Origin: Clostridia bacterium
Lineage (GTDB): Bacteria; Bacillota; Clostridia; TANB77; CAG-508
Assembly: GCA_017429505.1 (NCBI GenBank)
Contig: JAFROW010000009.1
Coordinates: 103,337-167,336, forward strand
Reading direction: 5' to 3'
DNA: 64,000 nucleotides
Within the stretch, counting starts at the first letter, position 1. Every line of letters starts with the position of its first letter. Shown here one piece after another: positions 2,861-63,872 of this stretch. Both the position numbers and the translations under genes were made by a program. Below the pieces are notes generated by a model that saw nothing but the letters and a program-made list of their open reading frames with translations, was not told where the DNA came from and did not search any database.

Positions 2861-2874
2861 ACACACTCTCCTCT

Positions 2875-8155: not shown

Positions 8156-8192
8156 ATCTTTTTATACCTCCATTCTATACTTTTATAATATT

Positions 8193-8234
8193 CTAAAAAA
8201 TTTGAAAGCACCCCAAAAAATTTAGTGTGCTTTC
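8193..8234 (-). terminator. Terminator candidate after rnhA
   Basis: GAAAGCAC (8204-8211) pairs with GTGCTTTC (8227-8234). A T-run follows on the minus strand. Confidence 0.5.
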
Positions 8235-8245
8235 ATAGTTTTCAT

Positions 8246-40402: not shown

Positions 40403-41143
40403 TTAAACTTTATCAAATACATTTCCTAAACTATCATTTATTACCAAACTTGCTTTATAATCATATAATGTTGCATCTCTATTTATTAAAACTAAATTTT
40501 TTCCTCTAAAATAATTAATTAACCCTGATGCAGGTTGCACTGTTAACGATGTTCCTGCAACTATTAATAAATCTGCCTCTTCAATAGCTTTTACTGAATT
40601 AATTAAAGTATTTTGATCTAGCCCTTCTTCATATAAAACTACATCAGGCTTTATAATACCACCACAAGTACATTTTGGAATTCCATTGCTGTTAAATACA
40701 TATTCTGCGTCGTAAAATTTGTGACACTTCATACAATAATTTCTTAATACACTTCCATGTAATTCATACACTATTTTTGAGCCAGCATTTTGATGCAATC
40801 CATCAATATTTTGAGTTATTATTGCTCCTAACTTTCCTTTGCTTTCTAGCTCTGTTAATTTAATGTGTGTTATATTGGGTTGATATTTTAAAGAATTCAT
40901 TTTTGCCTTGTAAAATTTATAAAATTCATCTGTATTATTTAAAAAGAAAGTATGACTTAATATTTCTTCTGGTGGATATTTGTATTGTTGATTATATAAA
41001 CCATCTTTACTTCTAAAATCAGGAATACCACTCTCAGTAGAAACTCCTGCTCCACCAAAAAATACTGTATTTTTGCTTTTTTCTACTAACTTTTTAAAAA
41101 CTTTAATTTTATCTTCATTAGTTGCATTTGTTGAATTATTCAT
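40403..41143 (-). CDS. cobB: NAD-dependent protein deacylase (Sir2 family)
   Basis: GAGVSTESGIPDFRS, QNIDGLH, the zinc-ribbon cysteines (CMKC...CTCGG) and GTSLTVQPA are all present. The start is ATG 41143 with a GGAGGTAAG RBS. The track extension to 41194 lacks one. Confidence 0.9.
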   Translation of the reverse strand: MNNSTNATNEDKIKVFKKLVEKSKNTVFFGGAGVSTESGIPDFRSKDGLYNQQYKYPPEEILSHTFFLNNTDEFYKFYKAKMNSLKYQPNITHIKLTELESKGKLGAIITQNIDGLHQNAGSKIVYELHGSVLRNYCMKCHKFYDAEYVFNSNGIPKCTCGGIIKPDVVLYEEGLDQNTLINSVKAIEEADLLIVAGTSLTVQPASGLINYFRGKNLVLINRDATLYDYKASLVINDSLGNVFDKV

Positions 41144-41182
41144 ATTCTTACCTCCGGGATATTTTGCTTTATAAAATTCCAG

Positions 41183-41240
41183 TTCGTTTTCCACAATTAT
41201 ATCACATATTGTGGAAAAATAAAATATTATTTTATTTAAA
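41183..41240 (-). promoter_or_regulatory. Promoter-like segment with an extended -10 and a TTCCACAAT/ATTGTGGAA palindrome; duplicated at 49795-49850
   Basis: The minus strand reads TGATATAAT (41204-41196). 9-bp inverted arms at 41189-41197 and 41208-41216 flank it. The 24 nt at 41183-41206 are identical to 49795-49818. Confidence 0.5.
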
Positions 41241-45772: not shown

Positions 45773-46632
45773 GGTCAATCGGGACGTCCTTTTTTGACCA
45801 CTATTTTTTATTAATCAACCTTAGCGTTTCCCTAGGAATATTCAATTCAACAGCAATTTTTCTTAGTGAAAGCCCATAATCTTTATTTAAAGTAGCTATT
45901 AAGTCTTTTAATAACTCTTTATTTCTTTTTGGGTTAATAATATCCAAATTGTTTTTTTCCATAAATATTTTGATATATTCTTTATATGCATTTTCTATTT
46001 CCTCTTCATCATCTATAAAAATGAAAGTTTCACTTGTTTTTTCTGGTATCGGTTTATAATTTGACCATTTGTATTCATCTGGACGACTACAAATTCCTGC
46101 TTTTACCGGATTATTATAAATATACTTTATACAATTATATAATTGTGAATCATTATAAATTCCTTCTGACCTATATCTATCTCTAAACACATATCCTACT
46201 CTTTTATATTTTTTATTATAATATCTGGCATATTTTGAATTTAACCTTAACATATAGTTACTTAATTCCTCTATTTTTTCTACTTTTGCTAACATATGTG
46301 TATGGTTATTCATTATACAGTATGCAATTATTTTTATTTTATATTCTTTCAATAATTCATACATTATTTTTATATAATATTTTATATCCTCTTCGTATTC
46401 AAAAATATATGTTTTGTTTATCCCTTGTGTCATAATATGAAGATATGACGTTTTTATATAGTTCCTTGGAAATCTTGGCATTATTTTTTCTCCTTTTTTA
46501 GAAATAATTTTTTAAAATAAAAAATAATATGATATAAATTTTTGTAATTATATCATATTATTTTTGAAATTTTTGTCAAAATTTGTAATCTAGTTCAAAT
46601 TTTTGGGTCAAAAAAGGACGTCCCGATTGACC
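45773..46632. mobile_element. RAYT/IS200-like Y1 transposase gene flanked by perfect 27-bp inverted repeats
   Basis: GGTCAATCGGGACGTCCTTTTTTGACC (45773-45799) is exactly the reverse complement of 46606-46632. Each copy is itself a small hairpin (GGTCAA...TTGACC) around the GGACGTCC palindrome. Confidence 0.75.
45801..46481 (-). CDS. IS200/REP-associated type Y1 (HUH) transposase with a C-terminal HTH-like tail
   Basis: YLHIMTQGINKTYIF, the HUH motif (CIMNNHTHML), the catalytic Tyr region (GYVFRDRYRSE) and NPVKAGI are all present. The C-terminus LSLRKIAVELNIPRETL looks like an HTH. Confidence 0.8.
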   Translation of the reverse strand: MPRFPRNYIKTSYLHIMTQGINKTYIFEYEEDIKYYIKIMYELLKEYKIKIIAYCIMNNHTHMLAKVEKIEELSNYMLRLNSKYARYYNKKYKRVGYVFRDRYRSEGIYNDSQLYNCIKYIYNNPVKAGICSRPDEYKWSNYKPIPEKTSETFIFIDDEEEIENAYKEYIKIFMEKNNLDIINPKRNKELLKDLIATLNKDYGLSLRKIAVELNIPRETLRLINKK

Positions 46633-47660: not shown

Positions 47661-48812
47661 TCAATTTATTTCGGGTAATTTTCCAATATAACTTTGCGTA
47701 ATACTAGTATTCGTTGTACCATCTTCATTCTTAAAGTCCCAATTTCTATTTAAAATATTAGTTTCATTCCATTTACCCATAGACCAATATTTGTGTTTGC
47801 CAACAAATAAGACTTTATATTCTTTTTTAGCAAATACTTCTATTTCATCATAGTTTTCTTGTATAAATCTATTTAGTTTTCTTATAATTTCTAATTTTTC
47901 TCCTTCTTCATTTTCAATAGCATATTCGTGTGGAGCAAAGTTTGTGTAGGTTTTAGCATATCTATACTCTAATAAATTAGCCACTTTTTCAAAATCAGTT
48001 TTATTCTTTATTTCTATATCTTTCAATTTTGATATCTCATTACTTGATATTTGTTTTTCAACTTTTTCCTTACTTAATAAATCTTTTCTTTCAGTTTCTT
48101 TATTAACATTCAATTTCAAAAAATGCTTTGCCCATTCTTCTGTTCTTTTTCTGTTATCCCATAATGATTTATCACTATGATTTCTATCATACTCTAGTTT
48201 TCTGATAAGTGCATCTGATTTTATTACTTCATACTTTATATCTATTGGAGCTTTTTTCGTATCTAAAATATTTTCACCATTTGCTGCTACTACTAATACT
48301 CTATGTAATTCCTCAAATTTTCTTTCAAATAAAAAGGTTTTAAATTTGCCTTGCATTTTCATCCAAATTTTTTTATACACTTCTCTTTGTGCACATACTT
48401 GTCTATATGGTGATTCCATTCCTTTTTTTATATTATGTCCTTTATATGTGTATTGTCTTATAAAATTTCCTCTTTCATCTAAAGTAATATTTCCAATTAG
48501 GTTTTTGCATTCTATAAAATAACAGCACCATGGAGTTACAACCACAAAATCTATTTGTGCTTTTAAATCTTCATATTCTATATTAATATCACGTAATACA
48601 TACATTCCAATATTTGCTTTTTTTAGTTGATATGCTATTTCATTTTCGCCTTTTAATCCTTTTTTAGCTATATATAACTCTTGTTGCAATTGTTCATTTT
48701 TTGAATTTTTCTCTAATAAATTTTCTAGCTCAATTACTCTTTTTTGTAAACTTGAATCTTCCTTTAAAAATATTGTATCTCTAAACTGTTCAAACATATC
48801 TAGTATTCCCAT
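47661..48812 (-). CDS. NERD (nuclease-related) domain protein with an uncharacterised C-terminal domain
   Basis: GENEIAYQLKKANIGMYVLRDINIEYEDLKAQIDFVVVTPWCCYFIECKNLIGNI is the NERD D...D...E-x-K pattern. I did not recognise the C-terminal 120 aa (YAKTYTNFAPHEYAI...). Confidence 0.65.
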   Translation of the reverse strand: MGILDMFEQFRDTIFLKEDSSLQKRVIELENLLEKNSKNEQLQQELYIAKKGLKGENEIAYQLKKANIGMYVLRDINIEYEDLKAQIDFVVVTPWCCYFIECKNLIGNITLDERGNFIRQYTYKGHNIKKGMESPYRQVCAQREVYKKIWMKMQGKFKTFLFERKFEELHRVLVVAANGENILDTKKAPIDIKYEVIKSDALIRKLEYDRNHSDKSLWDNRKRTEEWAKHFLKLNVNKETERKDLLSKEKVEKQISSNEISKLKDIEIKNKTDFEKVANLLEYRYAKTYTNFAPHEYAIENEEGEKLEIIRKLNRFIQENYDEIEVFAKKEYKVLFVGKHKYWSMGKWNETNILNRNWDFKNEDGTTNTSITQSYIGKLPEIN

Positions 48813-49850: not shown

Positions 49851-50073
49851 TGACCTTCGGGCTATGAGGTCTAGTTGAGAGGTTTATGTAATTTAGTGAA
49901 ATCAAGGGTTTTAGCTGATTTATCAATGAAAATTGGGGAAATGAAATTTAGAACATTTGTGTGATTTTTTGTACTTTTTTGAGAATTTTTTCCCCAACTT
50001 TTCCCCAATTATTTTTAGCAAATATTGGAAATCAAAATGGGAAACCTGAAAATTTATTTTGGAGGTTTTGATT

Positions 50074-50430
50074 ATGAATAAAATTACTTATCACAAAGAA
50101 GGAGATTATTTGATTCCTGATTTAATTATGGATAATTCTTGTGAGGATTATCATATTGGAAAATATGGCAGATTAAGGTTAAATTATATTAAAAATTATA
50201 AAAGAGGCTTATATACCGAATTAATGATAAATGGAACACTATCTAAACATCTTGCTGATATTGAAAATGCAGCTAATGAAAGAATTTGTTTAATAGTTAA
50301 ACAATTAGCTGAATCAGAAAATGTTAATGAAGATTTAAAAAGCAATAATCAACTTGCTTGGGTTCAAGCTATGAATAACATTAAAAATCGTGCTGAAGAA
50401 ATTGCTTATAATGAGATTATTTATGTGTAG
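50074..50430 (+). CDS. TnpV-like transposon-associated protein
   Basis: ITYHKEGDYLIPDL...GKYGRLRLNYIKNYKRGLYTELMINGTL..HL..I...A...QLAWVQAMNNIKNRAEEI..NEIIY matches the TnpV family (Tn4451) as I remember it. The ATG at 50074 follows a GGAGG RBS. Confidence 0.6.
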   Translation: MNKITYHKEGDYLIPDLIMDNSCEDYHIGKYGRLRLNYIKNYKRGLYTELMINGTLSKHLADIENAANERICLIVKQLAESENVNEDLKSNNQLAWVQAMNNIKNRAEEIAYNEIIYV

Positions 50431-50444
50431 GAGGATTCAAAGAT

Positions 50445-50735
50445 ATGAGTTTTAGAGAAGTTAATGATGATATTTTAAAAGAGATTTGGGAATATAGAGA
50501 TCAAACTGAATTTGCATACTTAACTAAAGAAGATAAAAAACATATGATTTATTTTGATGAGATTACAGATAAAATTTTAAACAGCATTCCTAAACAAAAT
50601 AGGAAATTTGTTCAAAAACAACTTAATAAACTTGATGATAATTTTTCTGATTATGTTGGATATTGGAGTGAAAAATATTATAGAAACGGATTTTGTGATG
50701 GAGCTGAAATGATTATTGGATGTTTAGAGAAATAA
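50445..50735 (+). CDS. 96-aa conserved hypothetical protein coupled to the TnpV-like gene
   Basis: An AGGAGG RBS is present. By eye it is almost 90 percent identical to the product of 55849-56139. No motif was recognised. Confidence 0.6.
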   Translation: MSFREVNDDILKEIWEYRDQTEFAYLTKEDKKHMIYFDEITDKILNSIPKQNRKFVQKQLNKLDDNFSDYVGYWSEKYYRNGFCDGAEMIIGCLEK

Positions 50736-50807: not shown

Positions 50808-51611
50808 TTATTCTATTTCAATTATTCCTAAATCAACAAAAGATATCAATAATAAACTGAGCATATATCGGTTATTTAATGATTGTTCATAATTAAAAAT
50901 ATCTGTATTAAATTCTCTAGTATTATCTAAATTGATTTCCTTTACATTAATCTTTTCTAAAGAATTTATTAATTCCAAAAAAGCATTTGATAATGTATCA
51001 ATTGACATTTTATTATTTAAATATTTTTTATCATCAATATATTCCTTTAATTTTTTATTTTCAAAATCAAACCTTTTATCAAAATTACTCATATCATTTT
51101 CAAAATTAGAAATTATAAATGTTTCAATTGCTGGATAACTTAACAATAACATTCCACCAATACTATTAAATTTGTTTTCAACATCATCATTTGGCTCTCT
51201 AGAATTTGTATAATGTTCTGTTAATTCTTTTATTATGTTGGTATCTTCTTTTCTATCCGCATCAAAAACATAATATATTGCACTATTTCTATATTCGTAA
51301 TCTAAACCACTATCCCTTAACAACTCAATTTGTTTATCTATAAACTCTGTATTGTTAATAGTATCAATATTACTAGTTTCAGAATTTATAATTACAACTT
51401 GTGAATAAACATTATCTCTTTTAGAAAATTGTCTATATTTCTTTTTTCCATTTCTGTTTAAGCTTATAACTTCTTCATATCCTAGAATATTTAAAAATAT
51501 ATTTGCAATTAAATTAATTTCTCTAGTTGCCCCTTCTACAATATATAAAACTTTTCCAATATTCTTATCTTGATTAAATTTAAATTTCTTATTTAATATT
51601 TGGTAATCCAT
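50808..51611 (-). CDS. TOPRIM-like (DUF4435/RloB class) putative nuclease partner of the ABC ATPase
   Basis: VLYIVEGATRE is an EG-type TOPRIM Glu. YYVFDADRKED is DxD-like, and LLLSYPAIETFI is also present. The ATG at 51611 has a GGAG RBS and overlaps the end of the ATPase gene by 23 nt. Confidence 0.55.
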   Translation of the reverse strand: MDYQILNKKFKFNQDKNIGKVLYIVEGATREINLIANIFLNILGYEEVISLNRNGKKKYRQFSKRDNVYSQVVIINSETSNIDTINNTEFIDKQIELLRDSGLDYEYRNSAIYYVFDADRKEDTNIIKELTEHYTNSREPNDDVENKFNSIGGMLLLSYPAIETFIISNFENDMSNFDKRFDFENKKLKEYIDDKKYLNNKMSIDTLSNAFLELINSLEKINVKEINLDNTREFNTDIFNYEQSLNNRYMLSLLLISFVDLGIIEIE

Positions 51612-52725
51612 TAAACACTCCACTTAAATACATTTTTTCTAAATTTTGAGCTTCTCTTGGTTTACTATCAGACACTCTGTATAGCTTACTTCCTTTTCCA
51701 ATAATATAATCTACTGTATAAATTTGGTCTGGTCTTAATAATGTATTGGTTAATAAATTAGTTGAATGTGATACAATAAACATTTGAGATTTTTCTGATT
51801 TTTCCATAAAATATTTAATTATTTTTTCTTCTAATTGATTATGAAACGCACTACTAAATTCATCTATTATTACCATGCAGTTCTTCTTTATAGCTTGTAA
51901 AATTTGTGGTAATACTTCGACCAAAGTTTGATTTCCCAAAGATTCTAGTGTCATTGGCAAACCTATATCCATATCTTTTCTCAATATAATTACTTCTTTT
52001 CTATTTTGAAAATTGAATTGCATTAATTTATTTTTATATCCACTAACATAATCAACTGTTTGATTATAATTAATTAATTTTAAGAATTCATTAAATTCTT
52101 CTTTTCCATTATTTTCAAAATAATTTCTTGTTAATTTATCTTGATTTGCACATAATACAAATTTATTTGCCTGATCAATATAAACAGAATCTTTTAAAAA
52201 GTCAAACCATTCTTGTAATACATCATTATCAATGAATCTGTTTTCAAAATATACTGCTCTTAATGCTGATTGATTTTTTTGAACATTATCAATCTGCATT
52301 TTTTTGCCTTCCTTATTTGTATATTCTCCATTACTATTAATTCTAACTAAAATTTGTTTACCATCTTGCGTTAATTCTTCTTTTAATATAGTACTATTAT
52401 CTGTTTCAATTGCATATTTAATATATGACTCTTTTATTTTAAATTCATATATTAATTCCATTCTTTCTTTCAAATCAGAATAAAAACTCTTATATTCAAA
52501 TAATTGAACATCTGCTTGCCATACTAATAATTCTAATAAAAATCTAATTGCTCTAATTACGTTCGTTTTTCCCGTTGCATTTCCACCTACAAATATTGCT
52601 CCTTTTAAAATATTATCACTTGTTTTATTTTCATTTGACAATATTTCATATCCAGTTGCATTTAAATCAATCTCAGTTTTATCAACAAATGATTTAAAAT
52701 TTTTCATAGATAATTTTACTAACAT
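51589..52725 (-). CDS. ABC-type (AAA_15/AAA_21-like) ATPase, AriA/AbiLi class
   Basis: Walker A is GGNATGKTN, Walker B/D-loop is MVIIDEFSSAFH and the H-loop is IVSHSTNLL. The N-terminus (LSMKNFKSF) is typical of SMC/ABC-like defence ATPases. Confidence 0.8.
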   Translation of the reverse strand: MLVKLSMKNFKSFVDKTEIDLNATGYEILSNENKTSDNILKGAIFVGGNATGKTNVIRAIRFLLELLVWQADVQLFEYKSFYSDLKERMELIYEFKIKESYIKYAIETDNSTILKEELTQDGKQILVRINSNGEYTNKEGKKMQIDNVQKNQSALRAVYFENRFIDNDVLQEWFDFLKDSVYIDQANKFVLCANQDKLTRNYFENNGKEEFNEFLKLINYNQTVDYVSGYKNKLMQFNFQNRKEVIILRKDMDIGLPMTLESLGNQTLVEVLPQILQAIKKNCMVIIDEFSSAFHNQLEEKIIKYFMEKSEKSQMFIVSHSTNLLTNTLLRPDQIYTVDYIIGKGSKLYRVSDSKPREAQNLEKMYLSGVFNGLPNIK

Positions 52726-52872: not shown

Positions 52873-53640
52873 TTATTCAAATATACTTTCAAATTCTAGA
52901 GGCACAATATCCTCATATAATAGAACATATTGTGAATTAACTTGTCTATAATCATGATAATGTCCAAAATACCATTTTTTAAATTCACATTTTTTCATAA
53001 TGTTTTGAAAATAATCTGTTAAATAATCTTTTTCAAATTCTCCTGCTCCTAATATCGTTTGAATACTTGTAGGACAACAATGTGAAATAATATAATCAAC
53101 TTTATAATTTACTTTTTCTAAATTTTTTATTCCATTTTTCATTTCTTCTTCAGTTGGTAATTCTAAATCCCACCATGAATACTCTCTTATTCTAAAATAT
53201 GCTCCTCTTTTTCGATATTCATATATCCTTTCTTCTTCGTCAAGATTTAAAATTCCATCTTGAATATCGTGAGATTTTGCACCACCAAATACAAAGAATT
53301 TTTTACCATCAATATCAAATATTTCCCCACGCATTAAATGCAAAACGGAATCTCTAATTTTGTGTACTTTTCCTCCATGCCATTCTTCTACTAGATAATC
53401 ATTACATAATCTTGTAAAATTTTCATGATTTCCATCTACAAATAGTATCGTGAAGTTTTTACTATTTAACCAGTCTAATGCTTCTTTTTCGCGATGGCTC
53501 TCTTCTTCAAATGTCCATACTCCTCCAAAATCACCACATATTATTACGTAATCATTTTTTGTCATTTCAGATTGTATTGGAAATTGCTCTTCTGTAAATC
53601 TTGTGAAATCTGAATGTGTATCTCCTGTTATATAAATCAT
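52873..53640 (-). CDS. Calcineurin-like metallophosphoesterase
   Basis: IYITGDTHSD, ICGDFGG, VDGNHENF and GHYH are the ordered phosphoesterase metal-binding motifs. Confidence 0.85.
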   Translation of the reverse strand: MIYITGDTHSDFTRFTEEQFPIQSEMTKNDYVIICGDFGGVWTFEEESHREKEALDWLNSKNFTILFVDGNHENFTRLCNDYLVEEWHGGKVHKIRDSVLHLMRGEIFDIDGKKFFVFGGAKSHDIQDGILNLDEEERIYEYRKRGAYFRIREYSWWDLELPTEEEMKNGIKNLEKVNYKVDYIISHCCPTSIQTILGAGEFEKDYLTDYFQNIMKKCEFKKWYFGHYHDYRQVNSQYVLLYEDIVPLEFESIFE

Positions 53641-53655
53641 AGCTTACCTCCAATA

Positions 53656-54744
53656 TTATTTCTTTTCTTCCACCTTTTTCAATAATTCTTTTAAGCTAAT
53701 TGGCTTAAAACCTATCACATCAACTGAAACATTTATATGTAATTTTTCTGAATATAAATTTTCAGGATATTCCATTTCATTTGTTTTTGGATTTACTTTA
53801 TGTAATGGATTATTATGAATATGTCCATGAACATTCACATATCCATTAGGAATTTCTGTATCTTTTAAAGGCTTATGAGATAAAATTAGTCTTTCATTAT
53901 TTAGCTTTAATGGATTTTCAGGTATAAATCCAAATCCTACATTTCTGAAAAATTCTTTAGATTTTTTATCATGATTTCCTCTTATTAAAAACTTTTTTCC
54001 TTTTAATTTTGGTATCAATTCTTTCATATCACTTTCACTTGTTAATGCTACATCTCCTAAATGAAAAATAGTATCGAAATCAGTAACTGTATTATTCCAA
54101 TTTTCTATCAAAACTCTATTCATTTCTGCTACATCTTTAAATGGTCTATTGCAATATTTAATAATATTTTTATGATTAAAATGTGTATCTGAAATAAAAT
54201 ATGTTTTTGCATTTTTTAATCCCTTATAGTATTCAAATATATCAGTAACTTCTTTTCCATCAAACCATCTTTTGTAATCATCTTTTTCGTTTTCTTTCCA
54301 CCACTCAAATTTTTCTTTAATTTTATTTCTTATTTTGCTAGTATCTATATTTGAATTTTCTTCAATTGCAAACAATACATCTATATTGTAACTTCCGCAT
54401 ATTAAAAAATCATAGTTTTTTATTTCATCATATCCATACTTATCTTTAACCTTTTCTATTTTTTTATCGTAAGAAATATATAAATAATCATCTTTAAATA
54501 AATGATTCTCCTTTATATATGTATAATATAAATCTTTTACGCCTGATGTTTTTACAAATCCTGTCATATACCATATTGTTCTACTTCGGATCTCTGTATA
54601 ATCTTTTGGCAAATCTTCTTTTCTGATTTTTGTTGGATATCTACCTTTAGAATACAAGAATTCATTTTCTGTATCAATTGTGTTTCTCCAATTTTTTCTA
54701 TCAAATTTTCCTTTTGTATACCAATTAGAGTTTATTCTTGACAT
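53656..54744 (-). CDS. Two-domain protein: unknown N-terminal domain (about 180 aa) plus a C-terminal metallophosphoesterase
   Basis: The C-terminal half has FISDTHFNH, HLGDVAL, IRGNHDKK, LSHKP and VHGHIHNN. I recognised nothing in the N-terminal half. Confidence 0.8.
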   Translation of the reverse strand: MSRINSNWYTKGKFDRKNWRNTIDTENEFLYSKGRYPTKIRKEDLPKDYTEIRSRTIWYMTGFVKTSGVKDLYYTYIKENHLFKDDYLYISYDKKIEKVKDKYGYDEIKNYDFLICGSYNIDVLFAIEENSNIDTSKIRNKIKEKFEWWKENEKDDYKRWFDGKEVTDIFEYYKGLKNAKTYFISDTHFNHKNIIKYCNRPFKDVAEMNRVLIENWNNTVTDFDTIFHLGDVALTSESDMKELIPKLKGKKFLIRGNHDKKSKEFFRNVGFGFIPENPLKLNNERLILSHKPLKDTEIPNGYVNVHGHIHNNPLHKVNPKTNEMEYPENLYSEKLHINVSVDVIGFKPISLKELLKKVEEKK

Positions 54745-55477: not shown

Positions 55478-55834
55478 ATGATTAATATAACTTATCACAA
55501 AGAAGGAGATTATTTAATTCCTGATTTGATTATGGAGAAATCCAATTCAACATGCAATGTTGGAAAATATGGGCATTTAAGAAATAACTTTTTAAAAGAA
55601 CATAAAAGAGGTTTATATACTGAATTAATGATTAATGGAACTTTGACTGATCATTTAATAGATATTGATAAAACTGCAACTGCAAGAGTTAATACTATAA
55701 TTAATAAACTTGCTAAAGCAGAAAATGTGAATGAAGATTTAAAAAGTCGTGAGCAACTTGCTTGGGTTCAAGCTATGAATAATATTAAAAACAGAGCTGA
55801 AGAAATTGTTTTTAATGAATTAATATATGTGTAG
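55478..55834 (+). CDS. TnpV-like transposon-associated protein (second copy)
   Basis: By eye about 70 percent identical to the 50074-50430 product. A GGAGG RBS is present. Confidence 0.6.
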   Translation: MINITYHKEGDYLIPDLIMEKSNSTCNVGKYGHLRNNFLKEHKRGLYTELMINGTLTDHLIDIDKTATARVNTIINKLAKAENVNEDLKSREQLAWVQAMNNIKNRAEEIVFNELIYV

Positions 55835-55848
55835 GAGGAGAAAAAAAG

Positions 55849-56139
55849 ATGAGTTTTAGAGAGGTAAATGATGATATTTTAAAAGAGTTTTGGGAATATA
55901 GAGACCAAACTGAATTTGCATTTATGACTAAAGAGGATAAAAAGCATATGATTTATTTTGATGAGATTACTGATAAAATTTTAAATAACATTCCTAAACA
56001 GAATAGGAAGTTTGTGCAACAGCAACTAAATAAACTTGATGATAATTTTTCTGAGTATGTTGGATATTGGAGTGAGAAGTATTATAGAAATGGGTTTTGT
56101 GATGGAGTGCAGATGATGTGTGGGTGTTTTGAGGAATAG
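55849..56139 (+). CDS. 96-aa conserved hypothetical protein (second copy)
   Basis: It is a near-identical paralogue of the 50445-50735 product, with an AGGAGGAG RBS. Confidence 0.6.
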   Translation: MSFREVNDDILKEFWEYRDQTEFAFMTKEDKKHMIYFDEITDKILNNIPKQNRKFVQQQLNKLDDNFSEYVGYWSEKYYRNGFCDGVQMMCGCFEE

Positions 56140-56169: not shown

Positions 56170-56745
56170 TTATTCTATATTTTTCATACAATAGTTTAGT
56201 AAAGTATCCATATTAGTTTTATCAGAAACTTCAAATTTTTTTAATAGTTTTTTTACCTGTTGTATATCTGTTTCTCCCTTATTTGTAGGAAATAATTCTT
56301 CATATATTTTTCCCTTTTCTCTGTCATTAGGTATCTTGCTTATTAATTTTAAGTCATACAAAACATGGTCAAAATTCTTATCATTCCATATAGGAACAAT
56401 ATATGGAGCTAACCAATGTTTTTGAAACATTTCTCCTGTTTTATATTTTTCAATTTTTTCTTGTGTAGTATCATCGAGATCCATTATTGGCATTATAGAA
56501 AAATTTTTAAATACTCCTTTTTCTTCCTCTATGATATAATTTGTTTTAAATGCTCTTTTATTCTTAAATATAGTATTTCCAAAAATAGTGTTTAAACTGT
56601 CTATTTGAATACTAGTTTTTCCGTTTCTTTGTGAATATATTTCTATTGGTAAATGTAAATTACTCTTTATATGCTCTGCAAATAAAAACTCACTCTTTCC
56701 ATGTGCAATTATAATGCCTTTACAGTAGTTAAGCTTTTTTGACAT
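56170..56745 (-). CDS. Short TOPRIM-like/DUF4276- or RloB-like partner of the second ABC ATPase
   Basis: GIIIAHGKSEFLFAEHI sits where these families have (V/C)EG..(T/S)E. PIMDLDD is DxD-like. The gene overlaps the ATPase stop by 17 nt. Confidence 0.5.
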   Translation of the reverse strand: MSKKLNYCKGIIIAHGKSEFLFAEHIKSNLHLPIEIYSQRNGKTSIQIDSLNTIFGNTIFKNKRAFKTNYIIEEEKGVFKNFSIMPIMDLDDTTQEKIEKYKTGEMFQKHWLAPYIVPIWNDKNFDHVLYDLKLISKIPNDREKGKIYEELFPTNKGETDIQQVKKLLKKFEVSDKTNMDTLLNYCMKNIE

Positions 56746-58096
56746 TAGATATATCCTCTTTTTCTTTTGAATCTTCTAGAGCATATTTTATTTCTTCAAA
56801 ATCTACATATTCTGTTGTTGGAATTCCACCAAATAAACCTTTAAAATATAAATCACGAGCATTATTATTCTTTTGTATTGTAATACCATAATCCTTAATA
56901 GAATTAATCTCTTTGTTTCCTTCATAATCTGTTGATAATATATATATACATTCTTTAGGCAATATTTCTAATAATAATGTATTATGTGTTGTAATAATTA
57001 ATTGACCATTTATTTCATCTTTAATTGACATTATTATGTTTTTCATTAATAAATCATGTATACCATTGTCTATTTCATCAATTATTACTGTTTCTCCCAT
57101 CATTGCGCCTATTATTGTATCAAACTCATCTACAATTTTTCGTGTTCCTTCAGACTCTAAATCAATTGAAATAGATTTTAGTTTTCCACCTATCATTTTA
57201 TTAAAATATAATTCATAGTAAACTTTTTCATCATTATCTTCAATTTTATATTCAACACTTTTTATATCTGCATAAGCTTGTGTAAAAAAGATATTTAATA
57301 CCTCTTCATATTTTTTTATAATATTTACTTTATCTTTTCTTATATTTCCAGATTTTAAATCTATCAATTTGGATTGCTTCATTATATTATCTGGCATTAG
57401 CTTAAAATCCCACATATGAACATGTATTGTCATCGATAAAAATTTATCTATTATATTAAATATTTTTTGTGAAGTATTAGTAATTACATAATCTTGATTT
57501 TTTTCTGCTGTTTCGTAAAATAGTAAAGATAAAAATGAATATTTTCCCCAATATTTATCAATATTGTCAATTAATTCCTTTTTATATTTTTCATTATTAA
57601 AAATGTTCTTGTTCAACTCTTTTTTTATTTCTTTTTCTTCTTTGCATATTTTAAAATAAAAAGCTTTTTGTTTTACTGCAAAATAATATAATTTTTCTTC
57701 AACGATTTCTGTATTGAACCTAATATAATAATATCCCTCTATATCATTTATTTTAAAACCGTATTCTATTTCTGTATCTTCTTTTTCATTTAATGTTCTA
57801 TATTCCTCTAAATTTAAAGATAATTGCCAGATTTTTTTTAATTCCACAGGAATGCTATCTATAAATTTTTTTTGTAATTCAAAATATTCTTTCGGTAGTT
57901 TATTAAGTGCATTGTCAATACTTTTTGATATTGTAAGCTGTTGAAGAAATTTAAATAATTCAACTACATTTGTTTTTCCACTGCCATTCTCGCCATATAT
58001 TGATATAAAATCATTTGTTATTTTTTGAGTCCTTTTCAAATTAAACTTAATATTTTTTAGAGATTTGAAATTTTTTGCTTTAACATATGTGAACAT
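56729..58096 (-). CDS. ABC-type (AAA_15/AAA_21-like) ATPase with a long coiled insertion
   Basis: Walker A is GENGSGKTN, Walker B is VIIDEIDNGIHD and the H-loop is IITTHNTLLLE. The N-terminus reads KAKNFKSLKN. Confidence 0.8.
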   Translation of the reverse strand: MFTYVKAKNFKSLKNIKFNLKRTQKITNDFISIYGENGSGKTNVVELFKFLQQLTISKSIDNALNKLPKEYFELQKKFIDSIPVELKKIWQLSLNLEEYRTLNEKEDTEIEYGFKINDIEGYYYIRFNTEIVEEKLYYFAVKQKAFYFKICKEEKEIKKELNKNIFNNEKYKKELIDNIDKYWGKYSFLSLLFYETAEKNQDYVITNTSQKIFNIIDKFLSMTIHVHMWDFKLMPDNIMKQSKLIDLKSGNIRKDKVNIIKKYEEVLNIFFTQAYADIKSVEYKIEDNDEKVYYELYFNKMIGGKLKSISIDLESEGTRKIVDEFDTIIGAMMGETVIIDEIDNGIHDLLMKNIIMSIKDEINGQLIITTHNTLLLEILPKECIYILSTDYEGNKEINSIKDYGITIQKNNNARDLYFKGLFGGIPTTEYVDFEEIKYALEDSKEKEDISNVKKA

Positions 58097-58278: not shown

Positions 58279-59706
58279 TTATATTATATCATTTATTGTA
58301 TTTAATATATTTATTACTTTTTTGTCATCAAATTCGTTATCTTTAATTAGATTTTTATAGTTATTGTTATCGCTTATAATAAATTTAATGAATTCACTAC
58401 ATATATTATTATCATCAAATACTTTTAACCAATTTTCATAATCAATAGAAGCATCTCCATTCATATAAAAAAAACTTCTCATCTCATTATTTATTATTTT
58501 ATATGAAGAGAATCTTACTAATAATTTATGTATATTATATTGTTCACCATTAGTATATTTAATATTACATTTCTTCTCATACTCTGTATATCTGCCTTGC
58601 TTTTTTAATCCATTTTTATCATAATAATAGAATATAATATTTTCATAGATTTTTTCTTTATCATCTCTTATTATGTATTTATACTCATCACTATAATATA
58701 CATTTATTAATATTATATATAATATTAATAAAACATTTCTGTTATCCTCTATATCAATTCCTTTATCTTTTAAATATTCTTTCATAAAATAATACTTTCT
58801 CAATATTTTTTTTATGTGTCTAGCATTTGTAAAATGTAATGTTTCAAAAAATCTCAAAATCAATTCTGACTCTTTTTCTTCCAAGTCAGTAATTTCCGAA
58901 ATATATTTTAGGAAATTCTGAGGTTGCATATTATTTATTAATTCAAATGTAATAGAAAATATTTTTTCTAAATATTCATCAGCTTTGTTATAATCATTAT
59001 TATATTTATTTTTTAAAGCTAGTGTAACTGCTGTTTTATCAACACCAATTATGAATATTATATTTTTATTAATTGATAAAAGCAATTTTATTGCAGAAAT
59101 TAATGTTATAATATTATCTGATTCGCATCTATCTAAATCATCTAAAAATACAACTAATCTCTTATCATTATTTAATTTAACACTTTTAAAAACACTTTCG
59201 AATTCTTCAATTTTCTCCCACAAACATTTTTTATCGTTAATATCATTTTTTATTTTTTCACCTTGCTTTTCTGCTTCATCCATTGCTTCTCCAGGTTTAA
59301 TATTAAAGATTCCAAGGTTTAACTCTACTCCTTTTGCTAAACTCTTAAATATTCCATATGCATTATTTAAAACATTACTGCCTTTTTCTTTTATTTTATC
59401 AAAGAAATTGTCTTTTCCTATGTATTTGAATAGAGAAAAAGCTAAATTATCATCTTTTTCATATTTCCATGTATCAAACCACATAACATTAAATTTTCCT
59501 GAATCCAAATTATTATATATTGTCTTCATTAAGCAACTTTTCCCACTTCCCCATGATCCATATATTGCTATTAAATTATTATTTTCTAAAATTTCTTTAT
59601 TACTATCTAATTCCAAAAAATCACATATTGATTTTGCTTTTTGGTAAGTTCCAAATATGTCATTATCCTTATTTATTTCCTTTACATTTTCTATTAAATT
59701 GTCCAT
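58279..59706 (-). CDS. KAP family P-loop NTPase
   Basis: IAIYGSWGSGKSCL is Walker A and MWFDTWKYEKDDN follows it. LVVFLDDLDRCESDNII is the KAP-type Walker B (DDLDRC). Confidence 0.8.
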   Translation of the reverse strand: MDNLIENVKEINKDNDIFGTYQKAKSICDFLELDSNKEILENNNLIAIYGSWGSGKSCLMKTIYNNLDSGKFNVMWFDTWKYEKDDNLAFSLFKYIGKDNFFDKIKEKGSNVLNNAYGIFKSLAKGVELNLGIFNIKPGEAMDEAEKQGEKIKNDINDKKCLWEKIEEFESVFKSVKLNNDKRLVVFLDDLDRCESDNIITLISAIKLLLSINKNIIFIIGVDKTAVTLALKNKYNNDYNKADEYLEKIFSITFELINNMQPQNFLKYISEITDLEEKESELILRFFETLHFTNARHIKKILRKYYFMKEYLKDKGIDIEDNRNVLLILYIILINVYYSDEYKYIIRDDKEKIYENIIFYYYDKNGLKKQGRYTEYEKKCNIKYTNGEQYNIHKLLVRFSSYKIINNEMRSFFYMNGDASIDYENWLKVFDDNNICSEFIKFIISDNNNYKNLIKDNEFDDKKVINILNTINDII

Positions 59707-59793: not shown

Positions 59794-59949
59794 TTATTTG
59801 TTTTTAAAATCTTGATAACATTTGTCAACAAATTGCTTTAATATGTCTTTCTGTATATCTGACAAATTATACTTTTTATCTTCATCAATAAACTTTTTAT
59901 CCATTTCTGCTATAAATTTTACTACTGGCAATAATTCTTCTTTATTCAT
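59794..59949 (-). CDS. 51-aa acidic/Lys-rich peptide, translationally coupled to the nuclease-helicase gene
   Basis: The ATG at 59949 has a GAGAGGAA RBS and overlaps the upstream stop by 8 nt (ATGAATAA). Confidence 0.45.
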   Translation of the reverse strand: MNKEELLPVVKFIAEMDKKFIDEDKKYNLSDIQKDILKQFVDKCYQDFKNK

Positions 59950-61918
59950 ACTTATATTCCTCTCTTTCTTCAGCAACCATTAAGACATCATCATTTTCTT
60001 CTTCATCAATTGAATATGTAATTTCATTTTTTTGATTTAATCTATTCTTTAAATATTCTGATAAATTTTTGTCTGTACAATAAATGTAACAACCCTTTTG
60101 TCCTCTTGTCATTAATGTTCTATATGTATTTTTTATAATTTCATCTGCTATTCTATTAGCTTTTTCAGAGTTTTCTCTACTTAACTTGCTAATTCCTTTT
60201 ATTGATTGGTCTGTTTTAGCTCTTTTTGTAACATCTGTAATTATCTTACCATTCTCGTACCTTAAGTCATCTCCAATAATTACACCAATATAATCAAATT
60301 CAAGTCCTTGAGCAGTATGTATACATCCAATTTCATTTACTGATTCAGCATCTATTGCCCATGTTTGGCTATTACCTAAATTCCAGCTCATTGCAAAATT
60401 GTATTCTGGAATAGTTATATCATATACATCTGATTTGTTTTTTCCATCTTTTATCCAATTCCAACAATATCCTGCTAATAATCTAGCTTTATTATTTATT
60501 TTATTCTTTTCAAATATTAAATCTCTTACTTCATTTGGATTATCACATACTCTAATATCATAATCTAAATCAAAACCATCACTATTGGCTGTTCTTCTTA
60601 TTTCTAATACATCATCTAACCATGCAATATATCCATCTGAACCATTACATCTAAACTGTGATTCCAATTCCATTATTTTTGATTCTGCATTAGCTTGTTT
60701 TATATATTTTTGTATTTCATCAATACTTCCTATATCCTTTAAGGTTACTCTTTGTGATTCATCTATGAAAAATATTGAAAATTTAGAAGCTTTAATAATC
60801 TCTTTTATTTGATTTTCTCCTAAGTTTTGAAACATTCCAGATTTCGCATTTAATCTATGTGCTTCATCTACAATTAAAACATCAAATTCATTTTCTGCAG
60901 ATTCTACAAATGAACCCGAACCTTTAAATAAATTATTAATTCTTGTTTTCCTAAAATCTCCACTCAATTTGGTTGCATATACACTTCTTGGTGCTGCATT
61001 TTTTGTTACATATGAGCACACCATGTTTTCATTAGTTAGTTTTACTAAAAGATTAATTGCTAAAACTGATTTTCCTGTTCCTGGTCCTCCCTTAACAACT
61101 AAAACTCTTTTATTTCCATCTCTATATGATTTTCTTGCCATTTCTAATGCTGTTTCGTAAACAAGTTTTTGATCATCTATCATTACAAATTCTTCATTAC
61201 CTTTTAACATGCTTGATAATGCATCTTGTAATGATTTAGAAGGCCTTATTTTTCCATTTTCAATCATATATAGTGTTTCTTTATCATCACCATATTTAAT
61301 ATATTTGTTTATGAAATCTCTTAATTTTTCAACATCACCCTTTATAAATGCTGGTGCTTTGTCTAGGTAGTATTTATAATTATCTGCTAATAGAGTTGGA
61401 GGTGTTACTGTTAAATAATTATGAAGATATGCACATGGATGTAAATCTATTTGTCTTTCTTGCACTGTTTCATTATAGTCTTCTATTGTCGTTACATAAG
61501 ACCAAGCTTGGTATGAAGGATGTGCTACTTCTCTTAATGCATGTCCTGTATATGCTTGTACAATTCCATCTTTTCCTTCAACAATATCAGCCTCTGCCCA
61601 TTGTTTTAATTCAACAATAATAGCAGTATTTTTAAGTTTTCCATCTTTACCTGTAATTATAAAGTCTACTCTTTTAGATGTATTAGGAATTTTAAATTCA
61701 ATTGCTATTCCTACATTTCCAGGTATATTATTATCAATTAAAACTTTCATCATGTATTGCATAGAGTTATTCCATGCTTTTCTTTCATTTTGAGATGTAT
61801 GATATCCCATCTTTTCATAAAATTTTCTATCTATATTTTCTTCAATTCTGTCTTGTACAACATCTTCTACAAATAGTTGCTTTGTTGCTTCATATACTAT
61901 CATAATAATTGCCCCCAT
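59942..61918 (-). CDS. Nuclease-helicase: N-terminal PD-ExK fold plus a DUF2075/Schlafen-like P-loop helicase (Nhi-like layout)
   Basis: RVDFIITGKD...AIIVELKQW is PD-ExK-like. VVKGGPGTGKSV is Walker A and VLIVDEAHRL is a DEAH box. GLEFDYIGVIIG and RGQKGCYIYC form a tail typical of DUF2075. The start may be ATG 61903 (MIVYEATKQ), which has a GGGGG RBS. Confidence 0.75.
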   Translation of the reverse strand: MGAIIMIVYEATKQLFVEDVVQDRIEENIDRKFYEKMGYHTSQNERKAWNNSMQYMMKVLIDNNIPGNVGIAIEFKIPNTSKRVDFIITGKDGKLKNTAIIVELKQWAEADIVEGKDGIVQAYTGHALREVAHPSYQAWSYVTTIEDYNETVQERQIDLHPCAYLHNYLTVTPPTLLADNYKYYLDKAPAFIKGDVEKLRDFINKYIKYGDDKETLYMIENGKIRPSKSLQDALSSMLKGNEEFVMIDDQKLVYETALEMARKSYRDGNKRVLVVKGGPGTGKSVLAINLLVKLTNENMVCSYVTKNAAPRSVYATKLSGDFRKTRINNLFKGSGSFVESAENEFDVLIVDEAHRLNAKSGMFQNLGENQIKEIIKASKFSIFFIDESQRVTLKDIGSIDEIQKYIKQANAESKIMELESQFRCNGSDGYIAWLDDVLEIRRTANSDGFDLDYDIRVCDNPNEVRDLIFEKNKINNKARLLAGYCWNWIKDGKNKSDVYDITIPEYNFAMSWNLGNSQTWAIDAESVNEIGCIHTAQGLEFDYIGVIIGDDLRYENGKIITDVTKRAKTDQSIKGISKLSRENSEKANRIADEIIKNTYRTLMTRGQKGCYIYCTDKNLSEYLKNRLNQKNEITYSIDEEENDDVLMVAEEREEYKYE

Positions 61919-61930
61919 TAATTATTATTT

Positions 61931-62248
61931 TTATAGTTTGTTATATTTGGTACTAACTCCCTTAGCTTTTTCTACTGGATATTTTTTTCTAGTTTTCTCT
62001 AATTTTTTCAATATTATTTCTTCAGGATCCACTCCTAGTTTCATAGCCATTTGAATGCAATATGTAAATACATCAGCCAATTCTTCACATACTTCTTCTT
62101 TATTATAATCATTATTCCATTGGAAACACTCTAATAGTTCACCAGCTTCAATAGAAATTGATTTAGCTAAGTTTTCTGGAGAATGGAATTGATTCCAATC
62201 TCTTTCTTGGTTAAATTGTTTTATTTCTTTTATTAATTTTTCCAACAC
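61931..62248 (-). CDS. MazG-like all-alpha nucleoside triphosphate pyrophosphohydrolase
   Basis: RDWNQFHSPENLAKSISIEAGELLECFQW and EELADVFTYCIQMA give the ExxE...ExxD metal-binding pattern of small MazG/dCTPase-like proteins. Confidence 0.8.
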   Translation of the reverse strand: MLEKLIKEIKQFNQERDWNQFHSPENLAKSISIEAGELLECFQWNNDYNKEEVCEELADVFTYCIQMAMKLGVDPEEIILKKLEKTRKKYPVEKAKGVSTKYNKL

Positions 62249-62261
62249 AAATTCTCCTTTT

Positions 62262-63701
62262 TCATTTAATTATTTCTCTATAAATTTTTTCTAAATATAT
62301 ATCTATTTCTGACCTTTTACCGTTTTTTATTAAATTAAGTAATTCGATTATTTCTGTATCACTAAATGGTAAAATTACTCCTTGTCCTGCTTTTACTGCA
62401 TCATTACATCTCTTAAATATTAACTTTTTATTATTGAACAATCTTGAAACAGAAATTCCAAATTTCCCTATCGTATTCTTATTAAATCTTCCTATGAGTT
62501 GATCTAATTCATTGTTTCCAATTTCCTCTTTATAATTTTTACATTCAACAATCACTTGGTTAGCACATATTTCTGGTCCAATTTTCATTCTATGGAAAAA
62601 TCCGTCTTTTGAGGCATTGGTATATATTATGTCTATTCTCTTTCTTCCTTCATTCTGTTTAAATTGTAATTCAGGATATGTTAATTGTGGCCAAAATATA
62701 AAACTTAAAATATCCTTTATTATTTTTTCATAACTATTAGCATATTCTTTTCCTGGCTTTATTTTATTTATTTTTTTTATCATTTCTTCTGCGATTTCTT
62801 TTTCTTCATCATTTTTAATAAAACATTCTTCAATCTTATCATTTTCCTTCGCATATATTTTATATTGTTTTAATAAATCTTGATTCTGCTCTGTAATTGT
62901 ATTTATAAGATCCTTTGTACATGGATATTTATCTTCTAAATATTTTTTATAAATACGTTTTTTTCCATTTTTCAAGGTTTTTGTCAAATCATTTCCTGCC
63001 ATTATTTCTCTTTGCTCAATAAAATTATATACATATTTATTATAATATTGGTGATAATCTAAAATCCCCTTTCTTCTAACTATATTTTTAGGTACTAATA
63101 GAATAGGATTCTCTTCTATTGCAGGTAAATTTATATACTGAATTTCTGTCCATGAATGTTGTATTTGATCCCATCCTTTATTGAAAGGCCACTTACTTTT
63201 TGTTATATCAATATTATGAAAATCACATTGTTTTATGGTATATTCAATTAGTTTACCTCTTATTATATTAGCTGTAATATCAGATATTTTATCCGAATTT
63301 ATATTCTTAATTAATAATCCACACTCTTCCAACTCCGTTATAATTCCATTTTTTATAGCTCTACTTTTCAGTAATCTTTCATATATTTGTTGCGATTGAT
63401 AAGCTCCTATTCCTTTGCCTTTATTTTTTTCTTCTGACAATCCCAAATGTATTTCATTTGGTTCTCTCAAATAAGACATTAAGTTCTTAGCTTTCTGTAT
63501 ATTCCCTTTCTTTACCAGATTCAATATAGTTTGAAAAAAATCTACTATTAAGTCATTACATTCTATGTTCCATTCATCATCCATTAAGCTAATTGCATAG
63601 GGATTAATAAATAGTTGTTGCTCTGGAGCATCAATATCTATATCAACGAAATCCAATTCGCATTGTTTAGCATTTAAATTAAAATATTCTGAAAATTTCA
63701 T
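62262..63701 (-). CDS. Uncharacterised protein with a C-terminal PD-(D/E)xK (restriction-endonuclease-like) signature
   Basis: GRKRIDIIYTN...QVIVECKNYKEEIGNNELDQLIGRF is a D...E-x-K pattern with a helix after it, as in Mrr-type folds. I did not recognise the N-terminal 330 aa or so. The start is ATG 63701 (MKFSEYF) with a GGGGGA RBS. Confidence 0.55.
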   Translation of the reverse strand: MKFSEYFNLNAKQCELDFVDIDIDAPEQQLFINPYAISLMDDEWNIECNDLIVDFFQTILNLVKKGNIQKAKNLMSYLREPNEIHLGLSEEKNKGKGIGAYQSQQIYERLLKSRAIKNGIITELEECGLLIKNINSDKISDITANIIRGKLIEYTIKQCDFHNIDITKSKWPFNKGWDQIQHSWTEIQYINLPAIEENPILLVPKNIVRRKGILDYHQYYNKYVYNFIEQREIMAGNDLTKTLKNGKKRIYKKYLEDKYPCTKDLINTITEQNQDLLKQYKIYAKENDKIEECFIKNDEEKEIAEEMIKKINKIKPGKEYANSYEKIIKDILSFIFWPQLTYPELQFKQNEGRKRIDIIYTNASKDGFFHRMKIGPEICANQVIVECKNYKEEIGNNELDQLIGRFNKNTIGKFGISVSRLFNNKKLIFKRCNDAVKAGQGVILPFSDTEIIELLNLIKNGKRSEIDIYLEKIYREIIK

Positions 63702-63872
63702 AACATCCCCCTTATTTATAATATATATCACAAAAAACTCTTTTTCTCAACATTTTCTGACAATTTGTTACAAAGAAAAAATATATTAAATATATAAATT
63801 TCAAACTAATATTTTAAATACAAGAAAAGAATTCCAGTGTTACCTGAAATCCTTTTCTCTCCATATAAAATC

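Follow-up and report, generated by a model that had tools for sequence, protein, structure and literature searches.

The 64,000-nucleotide (nt) stretch of the Clostridia bacterium contig JAFROW010000009.1 analysed here (positions 103,337 to 167,336 of the forward strand, hereafter the window) contains four closely packed genes, g1 to g4, all on the minus strand within positions 59794-63701, which the initial annotation proposed to be a four-gene defence operon. Comparison with related loci points to an object that is smaller than the one proposed, yet far more widely conserved, namely the pair formed by g2, encoding a MazG-like pyrophosphohydrolase, and g3, encoding an Nhi-like nuclease-helicase. 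These two genes very probably represent a functional pair, and the locus as a whole, with its DUF8370 gene g1 and its small gene g4, is in all likelihood composite. On balance, and with some reserve, the core g2+g3 is considered a new variant of the Nhi type, consisting of two genes and lying within this composite locus, with a putative anti-phage function.

The MazG-like pyrophosphohydrolase and nuclease-helicase pair

The product of g2 is assigned to the MazG-like family PF12643 (1e-21; 77.4 bits against a gathering cut-off of 27), and the closest solved structures are an archaeal pyrophosphatase (4qgp, 2.7e-17) and DCTPP1/RS21-C6 (6sqw/2a3q, 3.7e-17). Across 75 MazG proteins encoded together with g3 homologues, the metal-binding motif E34xxE37...E56xxD59 is conserved, and the early description of g2 as a small MazG-type enzyme with an ExxE...ExxD site was thus borne out. 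Judged from these similarities, g2 is an all-alpha nucleoside triphosphate (NTP) pyrophosphohydrolase of the DCTPP1/RS21-C6 type and the first component of the core. It matches no model of PADLOC-DB 2.0.0 (2023). Its similarity to DCTPP1 and the recurrent company of NUDIX and modification-dependent nuclease genes suggest that it may hydrolyse (deoxy)nucleoside triphosphates, perhaps including modified deoxynucleoside triphosphates (dNTPs).

The g3 protein contains a PF09848 domain (DUF2075/SLFN group-3 helicase, 9e-107) at residues 270-616, preceded by a nuclease motif, D80...E98-L-K100, that is invariant in the alignment of its homologues (A2), as are the Walker A and Walker B motifs. The initially recognised layout, a PD-ExK module followed by a GGPGTGKS/DEAH helicase with DUF2075 as in Nhi, is therefore upheld, and g3 is predicted to be an Nhi-like fusion of a PD-(D/E)xK nuclease and a superfamily 1 (SF1)/DUF2075 helicase, the second component of the core. 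All its PADLOC matches are partial: PDC-S41 covers residues 26-299 (7.9e-17), while Nhi and AbiO models match the helicase core (7e-16). A sequence search of the PDB with the g3 profile returned nothing significant. Since the ExxE...ExxD site of g2 is conserved, the D/E/K and Walker A/B residues of g3 are invariant and g2 resembles DCTPP1, both proteins are probably active enzymes. Gut Clostridia contain many close relatives of g3, with 87-91% identity. Only 8 relatives, all distant (no more than 35% identity), were found among 2.9 million viral contigs, which makes a phage origin of the pair unlikely.

The linkage of the two genes was inspected at 80 loci obtained by a metagenome scan, with g3 homologues of 55-92% identity. 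A MazG gene on the same strand accompanies the g3 homologue at 61 of the 80 loci, that is, at 61 of the 69 that could be evaluated (88%). It lies immediately upstream at 29 loci, immediately downstream at 20, often with overlapping stop and start codons, and upstream but separated by a single variable gene at 12; of the remaining loci, 11 are truncated, so that MazG could not be evaluated, and 8 lack it. When g3 proteins are clustered at 70% identity, MazG is retained in 24 of 30 evaluable lineages. It is always present on the contigs of the 87-91% relatives, where the gene upstream varies, examples being a UvrD-like helicase of 920 amino acids (aa) and a 585-aa unknown protein that follows two methyltransferases, and plasmids of Priestia (Bacillota), Marivirga (Bacteroidota) and the archaeon Halalkalicoccus carry the pair too. 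Pairwise identities of the MazG and g3 proteins are correlated (r=0.62, a value reached by none of 500 label permutations), with mosaic exceptions such as locus L062. In a more distantly related DUF2075 clade, found in Bacillus thuringiensis, the genes just upstream encode a PRA-PH-type pyrophosphohydrolase and an HNH nuclease.

The persistence of the linkage through inversion of gene order and insertion of other genes, across domains of life, is strong evidence that MazG and g3 are a functional pair, and their products may be physically or functionally coupled. A housekeeping role for g2, a concern of the initial annotation, is unlikely in view of the MazG gene neighbourhoods: an abundant variant with 90% identity (P0309, with 417 indexed blocks in the collection) again belongs to a DUF2075 operon carried by a mobile element, in the order NUDIX / DUF3427-NOV_C / 102 aa / MazG / DUF2075 and on the same type of element backbone. 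The tight packing of unrelated systems that is common in defence islands, together with the extreme variability of the genes around the pair, might be taken to mean that all four genes merely accreted as cargo and that MazG is independent of g3 too. We consider this the least credible account, and a very improbable one, since the two genes are adjacent at 88% of evaluable loci in bacteria and archaea, remain so when their order is inverted or a third gene intervenes, and encode proteins that co-diverge. Accretion is refuted for the MazG-g3 link and stands only for g1 and g4.

No description of a pairing of MazG with DUF2075/Nhi was found in a literature search that left most subscription journals outside, and an earlier description may exist.

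Some g3 homologues of 790-822 aa carry a C-terminal Peptidase_S24 domain of the LexA/UmuD type (L053:10700-11299, L149:4986-7355 and L160:6001-8457), and a separate 138-aa S24 gene is located between MazG and the helicase at two further loci (L100:5563-5976 and L104:3665-4078), which hints at control by RecA filaments on single-stranded DNA (RecA-ssDNA) or by DNA damage. Two g3 paralogues stand in tandem on a Hymenobacter plasmid and on one metagenomic contig (L091:4001-7987; L149:4986-9635).

Composition of the locus and the DUF8370 gene

The four genes are separated by gaps of 13-27 nt, with one 8-nt overlap. For g3, the start at 61903 is likelier than the in-frame ATG at 61918, because all homologues begin with MIVYE and a GGGGG stretch lies 8 nt upstream; the distance between g2 and g3 is therefore 27 nt rather than 12 nt. 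Of the tight packing originally reported, the common strand and the 8-nt overlap stand, and the 12-nt gap is replaced by this probably longer one. A consensus scan found no terminator-like site inside the cluster and located a promoter-like -35/-10 site upstream of g1 (63818-63789), which makes co-transcription of g1-g4 plausible; this site is a consensus match only (9/12), and such matches are fewer in the region than in its shuffles.

The boundaries of the conserved unit were delineated by blastn comparison of L001, a longer public contig that carries the identical locus (window coordinate = 73702 minus L001 coordinate), with seven sister loci (L177, L083, L097, L098, L101, L105 and L085). 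The homology block starts with the MazG start codon or not more than about 40 nt away (at 62244 in L177, L083, L097 and L105) and ends at the g3 stop codon, and only in L083 does it run on through g4. Upstream of g1, L001 encodes an HTH_17 protein, a Phage_rep_org_N protein, an IstB/DnaA-like ATPase and a relaxase, the last being the gene next to g1 in the window; this replication and mobilisation backbone is common to the sister elements at about 70% identity. In L097, the homologous relaxase gene is followed after 109 nt directly by MazG and g3, with no g1, and in L177-L184, an abundant element, NUDIX / DUF3427-NOV_C / 102-aa protein genes stand where g1 would be. Because of these block boundaries, the arrangement in L097 and the replacement in L177-L184, MazG-g3 is read from the alignments as a self-contained cassette occupying a variable cargo slot, and g1 as a gene joined to it by recombination. 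This (defence) slot is located downstream of the relaxase gene in an integrative/mobilizable element, whose host genome is of the low-GC, Clostridia type.

Precomputed Pfam annotation assigns the g1 protein itself to PF28123 (DUF8370), a model that is missing from the local Pfam copy that was scanned; at least 120 homologues among the matches listed are annotated likewise. It also matches over its whole length the PADLOC candidate PDC-M36A (PDLC04597, 6.1e-46, residues 3-475), as well as phrog_27295 (6e-93) and, weakly, the Pfam families Mrr_cat and RRG7. The catalytic signature D357...E386-C387-K388 is invariant in an alignment of 18 sequences (A1), which supports the restriction-endonuclease-like D...ECK ending noticed initially, and many N-terminal positions are invariant too. 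A PDB sequence search with the g1 profile gave nothing significant. In the AlphaFold model of the full-length protein (mean predicted local distance difference test score, pLDDT, 76.8), the best Foldseek matches are EcoT38I, FokI, N.BspD6I and the Cap4 nuclease, all weak (E of at least 0.03). The N-terminal 325 aa, which had been called unrecognisable, are predicted confidently when modelled alone (pLDDT 87.5, predicted template modelling score 0.84), with no Foldseek match at E<0.2 in the PDB or BFVD and no Pfam domain; according to this model the domain may be a new fold. As expected of a type IV restriction enzyme, g1 has a catalytic domain of restriction endonuclease type and no methyltransferase adjoins it in the window; Pfam and fold searches (PDB, BFVD) recognised in it none of the modified-base reader domains SRA, PUA, EVE, DUF3427 and MrcB_N.

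The g1 family comprises more than 2,600 homologous clusters at 90% identity, in Proteobacteria, Verrucomicrobia, Acidobacteria, Chloroflexi, bacteria of the candidate phyla radiation (CPR) and Clostridia, all of the proteins being unnamed. The second component of the PADLOC candidate, PDC-M36B, was not detected nearby: PADLOC found no match in g2, g3 or g4 (E<=0.1) and none among 10 tight neighbours of g1 homologues. No published description or function of PDC-M36 was found in the literature. Scanning one genome per species gave 493 loci with g1 relatives, of which the best 80 (35-42% identity) were examined. Their neighbours vary, and a conserved partner of g1 was accordingly rejected; they include ribonucleotide reductase, restriction-modification genes of types I, II and IIG (among them type I HsdM/HsdS and type II and MmeI-type methyltransferases), and an SLFN AlbA_2 protein. 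MazG and g3 follow g1 in the same order at 2 of these 80 loci, in metagenome-assembled genomes of a Clostridia member (L062) and of the gammaproteobacterial Cellvibrionaceae (L053), and at a third locus (L034) a distant DUF2075 protein gene abuts g1 upstream. Conversely, g1 is present at none of the 80 metagenomic g3 loci.

A system of four obligate components, with g1 as a sensor or second nuclease and g4 as a regulator, could be argued from the compact single-strand layout and its lack of an internal terminator-like site, and from the g1-MazG-g3 order shared with L062 and L053. In L062, where the gaps are 12 nt, the junction between the g1 3' end and MazG is moreover homologous to that of the window (73% nt identity), so the two arrangements have one origin and are not independent events. 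The same region (L001 10897-11843) is a mosaic, with MazG 85% identical to that of L062, g1 41% and g3 50%, which indicates recombination within the cassette. The recurrent order in L062 and L053 counts against a fully separate g1, and these two loci together with L034 leave room for an occasional functional link of g1 to the pair. The four-component account is nevertheless very improbable. MazG and g3 are lacking at 78 of the 80 g1 loci, the homology block shared with sister elements leaves g1 out, L097 represents a natural version without g1 on the same backbone, and the only two loci with g4 (L083 and L084) are without g1. The genes also differ in evolutionary depth: identity to the nearest relative is 46% for g1 but reaches about 91% for g3 and 95% for g2. 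With these neighbourhood counts and block boundaries, a single four-gene system was rejected. The gene order of the 479-aa protein, MazG and DUF2075 protein expected from the initial annotation is not kept beyond close relatives, only MazG-g3 being conserved, and g1 is most likely a separate restriction-endonuclease-like protein acting alone or as an optional extra.

The place of g1 beside the pair is filled at sister loci by DUF3427-NOV_C, MrcB_N, Mrr_cat, AspBHI_N and HNH proteins, and g1 thus occupies a variable 'partner nuclease' position. More generally, the genes wedged into or abutting MazG-g3 encode Peptidase_S24, HEPN_AbiU2, Mrr_cat, MrcB_N, Fic, TPR, HNH_4 and PLD-ResIII-DUF3427 proteins, NUDIX proteins (some of them methyltransferase fusions) and a further small pyrophosphohydrolase. 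Among 83 non-redundant tight neighbours, the Pfam families identified most often were Mrr_cat (three times) and DUF3427, RE_AspBHI_N, C5 methylases, N6/N4 methylases and DndB (twice each); Z1/AIPR and SIR2 are found among tight neighbours elsewhere, and on Streptomyces and Hymenobacter plasmids DUF3883 proteins are encoded upstream, recalling the published association of DUF3427-DUF3883 endonucleases with DUF2075 NTPases (PMC6765204).

Ribonucleotide reductase (nrd) genes lie directly upstream of a g1 homologue, on the same strand, in 7 of the best 80 species (L013, L019, L039, L070, L071, L072, with the g1 homologue at about 7001-8440, and L079, at 2157-3581). They encode either the large and small subunits of a class I enzyme or a TSCPD-domain enzyme of class II, and in three Sphingomonadales loci the gap to g1 is just 0-8 nt. 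Together with MazG, they make nucleotide-metabolism genes the commonest recurrent neighbours of the DUF8370 family; a homing-endonuclease-like insertion is an alternative explanation of the nrd linkage. Genes of the g1 family are also found in 23 viral or prophage contigs of IMG/VR (L193-L215), where they form phrog_27295; no MazG, g3 homologue or ribonucleotide reductase was found near them in these contigs, and N6-methyltransferase-like genes occur within a few kb in 3 of the 23.

The small gene g4 has no family match in any library searched, and among the loci examined a homologue was found only in L083/L084 (73% amino-acid identity). As 21 of the 33 nucleotide differences from this homologue fall at the third codon position, g4 is probably a real coding gene, in keeping with the tiny charged product noted initially, and it is lineage-restricted. 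Small open reading frames after g3 in other close relatives are unrelated (zinc-ribbon-like, 87-89 aa; 62-66 aa; 76 aa), and g4 was rejected as a conserved component.

Neighbouring genes in the window

The features of the cluster and its surroundings are listed in the table. The KAP-family NTPase gene directly downstream of g4, which matches PDC-S20 (1.2e-23) and the QatA and PifA models, is probably a separate single-gene defence candidate. Beyond it, two AbiLi-like ATPase genes, each with a small partner gene, are encoded on the minus strand. Each adjoins a pair of plus-strand genes (123 or 118 aa, and 96 aa) present in two highly similar copies, which appear to be either backbone genes of the element or cassettes that have been duplicated; in L101 and L106, relatives of the 96-aa gene are likewise located downstream of the MazG-g3 cargo. 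Between the AbiLi-like cassettes lie two genes in which a metallophosphoesterase-like GDxH...GNHE pattern can be seen by eye, the sole match being a weak one of the first (255 aa) to PDC-S10. Genes for SIR2-family, IS200-type transposase and NERD-domain proteins separate the metabolic genes from the defence cargo, and the island probably has its lower limit at about 47.6-50 kb. No tRNA genes were found in the window. The defence-island setting recognised initially is thus confirmed for the KAP, the two AbiLi-like ATPase and the NERD genes; the TOPRIM identity suggested for the small ATPase partners was not confirmed.

Table. Coordinates of the g1-g4 cluster and of other features of the window
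Feature	Position	Strand	Description
g1	62262..63701	minus	479 aa; ATG start preceded by GGGGG
g1 N-terminal region modelled alone	62727-63701	minus	325 aa
g1 catalytic signature	62538..62633	minus	GRKRID...ECKNY
g2	61931..62248	minus	105 aa; GTG start; 13 nt after g1
g2 metal-binding motif	62072..62149	minus	E34xxE37...E56xxD59
g3	59942..61903	minus	653 aa, MIVYEATK start; 658 aa from alternative ATG 61918
g3 nuclease motif	61604..61666	minus	RVDFI...VELKQW
g3 Walker A	61067..61090	minus	GGPGTGKS, residues 272-279
g3 Walker B	60857..60868	minus	DEAH, residues 346-349
g4	59794..59949	minus	51 aa; ATG overlaps g3 stop within ATGAATAA
Mobile MazG-g3 module	59942..62244	minus	84-88% nt homology to sister elements
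Promoter-like -35/-10 site	63789..63818	minus	candidate start of the transcription unit
KAP-family P-loop NTPase	58279-59706	minus	
AbiLi-like ATPase with small partner	56729-58096 with 56170-56745	minus	
AbiLi-like ATPase with small partner	51589-52725 with 50808-51623	minus	
Small gene pair, copy	55478-56139	plus	123/118 aa + 96/96 aa over the two copies
Small gene pair, copy	50059-50735	plus	
Metallophosphoesterase-like pair	52873-53640 and 53656-54744	minus	255 and 362 aa
NERD-domain protein	47661-48812	minus	
IS200-type transposase	45801-46481	minus	
SIR2-family protein	40403-41194	minus	

Proposed function of the pair

Two proteins of the same architecture as g3 have been characterised as defence proteins. 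Nhi of Staphylococcus epidermidis (SERP2475) combines nuclease and bipolar helicase activities that stop the accumulation of phage DNA (Bari et al., 10.1101/776245), and the 'Nhi-like' gene of Bacillus cereus FSL H8-0482 is a verified defence gene (Millman et al., 10.1101/2022.05.11.491447). Like these, g3 has in one polypeptide an N-terminal PD-(D/E)xK nuclease followed by an SF1 core overlapping DUF2075/PF09848, and its gene belongs to a defence island carried by a mobile element. It differs in that its homology to Nhi is remote and that the glyoxalase-like C-terminal domain is absent, some members of its clade having a C-terminal S24 peptidase instead; moreover, Nhi and Nhi-like are single-gene systems, whereas the g3 clade is linked to MazG at about 88% of evaluable loci. 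A second point of comparison is offered by the modification-dependent DUF3427-DUF3883 endonucleases of the McaZI group, which adjoin DUF2075 proteins and were proposed to act jointly with them (Lutz et al. 2019, PMC6765204). In the window, g1 holds the place beside MazG-g3 that DUF3427-NOV_C and other nuclease genes take elsewhere; it has no recognisable modified-base reader, and a MazG partner is not mentioned in PMC6765204.

For g2, the nearest analogue is DCTPP1/RS21-C6, with which it shares the ExxE...ExxD site in addition to the similarity noted above, and from which it differs in being a prokaryotic, stand-alone protein of 105 aa encoded together with a nuclease-helicase on mobile elements. 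DCTPP1 prefers dCTP and 5-modified dCTP. In the nucleotide-pool defences based on dCTP deaminase or dGTPase, a dNTP-acting enzyme is likewise part of immunity; g2 belongs to another family with another chemistry, its predicted pyrophosphohydrolase activity being paired with a DNA-degrading enzyme.

The MazG-g3 pair is probably an anti-phage system or one directed against mobile genetic elements. By analogy with Nhi, g3 would unwind and degrade invading or replicating phage or plasmid DNA. At the same time g2 would hydrolyse dNTPs, possibly the non-canonical or modified ones that phages use to make restriction-resistant DNA, and, with the DNA under attack by g3, would thereby starve phage replication or force unmodified bases to be incorporated. 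An action on modified dNTPs is a rather doubtful part of this scheme and a speculative idea, for which the DCTPP1 similarity and the NUDIX and modification-dependent nuclease neighbours provide indirect support. The strictest form of the proposal appears unlikely, namely an obligate MazG + Nhi-like system in which MazG strips phages of their base modifications and g3, with the interchangeable neighbouring nuclease (DUF8370 in this locus), degrades the DNA. Under it, the MazG substrates might be precursors such as those of the 5-hydroxymethyl-dCTP/dUTP type, the N-terminal fold of DUF8370 might be a DNA or nucleotide sensor, and variants with an S24 domain might be switched on by RecA-ssDNA filaments.

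Several observations weigh against the assignment of the pair to an Nhi-type defence. The Nhi hidden Markov model of PADLOC aligns only with the helicase core of g3 (profile positions 124-331 of 470, 7e-16), and BLASTP against the verified B. cereus Nhi-like protein, of which about 400 residues given in the supplement were used, finds 25% identity over 147 aa in the Walker region (E 2e-5). Full-length homology being absent, g3 was rejected as an orthologue of this protein; a homologue on the B. thuringiensis plasmid pKK1 was likewise rejected as its orthologue. The similarity to DCTPP1 leaves the substrate specificity of g2 unfixed. The verified Nhi and Nhi-like proteins act as single genes, so that MazG may be dispensable or merely regulatory, and MazG is missing at 12% of evaluable g3 loci; as to g3 acting by itself, the linkage to MazG at 61 of 69 loci points the opposite way. 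Finally, the S24 fusions and the NUDIX/MutT neighbours would also fit a role in DNA damage and repair.

The last of these points leads to a different function, in which MazG-g3 would be a module for DNA repair or element maintenance under LexA-like control rather than for immunity. MazG or NUDIX enzymes would sanitise damaged dNTPs, and the nuclease-helicase would process damaged or replicating DNA of the element. The S24 domains, which are part of g3 homologues in L053, L149 and L160 and separately encoded between the two genes in L100 and L104, the recurrent NUDIX/MutT genes and the adjoining replication and relaxase genes of the element are what such a module might be expected to display. 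Its patchy, horizontally transferred distribution, its location in a variable cargo slot and not in the conserved backbone, the overwhelming share of restriction and defence genes among its immediate neighbours and the proven defence role of proteins with the same architecture all argue for immunity, and a repair function is regarded as quite improbable.

The possible regulatory role of MazG deserves slightly more credit, though it too is improbable. Here the enzyme would be an antitoxin-like safeguard or regulator of a self-toxic nuclease-helicase, for instance by destroying a nucleotide activator or alarmone, and not an effector acting on the phage nucleotide pool. Some Nhi homologues are indeed toxic when expressed alone (10.1101/776245), a small gene tightly and often translationally coupled to a large nuclease would suit a safeguard, and a partner of proteins whose verified relatives defend alone may be a control element. 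However, the gene order flips freely and third genes intervene, the 12% of evaluable loci without MazG show no obvious compensating change in g3 length, and MazG retains the catalytic residues of a dNTP-type pyrophosphatase. The preferred reading remains a defence pair in which both enzymes would act.

No system of PADLOC-DB 2.0.0 covers the locus: only PDC-M36A is assigned to g1, g3 is matched in part, and MazG and g4 match nothing, in agreement with the early statement that no named system joins these genes. The window also serves as a warning that genes packed like an operon in a mobile element's cargo slot need not form one system. Within it, the DUF8370/PDC-M36A protein stands apart as a member of a widespread family with an unmatched N-terminal fold and links to ribonucleotide reductase and restriction-modification genes. 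Nhi-type nuclease-helicases are now filed as single-gene defences, and detection tools that call the helicase alone would miss the MazG gene. If the pair is a defence system, a large bacterial and archaeal clade of the Nhi type has a conserved nucleotide-acting enzyme as its partner. A pyrophosphohydrolase would then join the short list of immune enzymes that act on the nucleotide pool, which would suggest a host counter-measure to the hypermodification of phage DNA.

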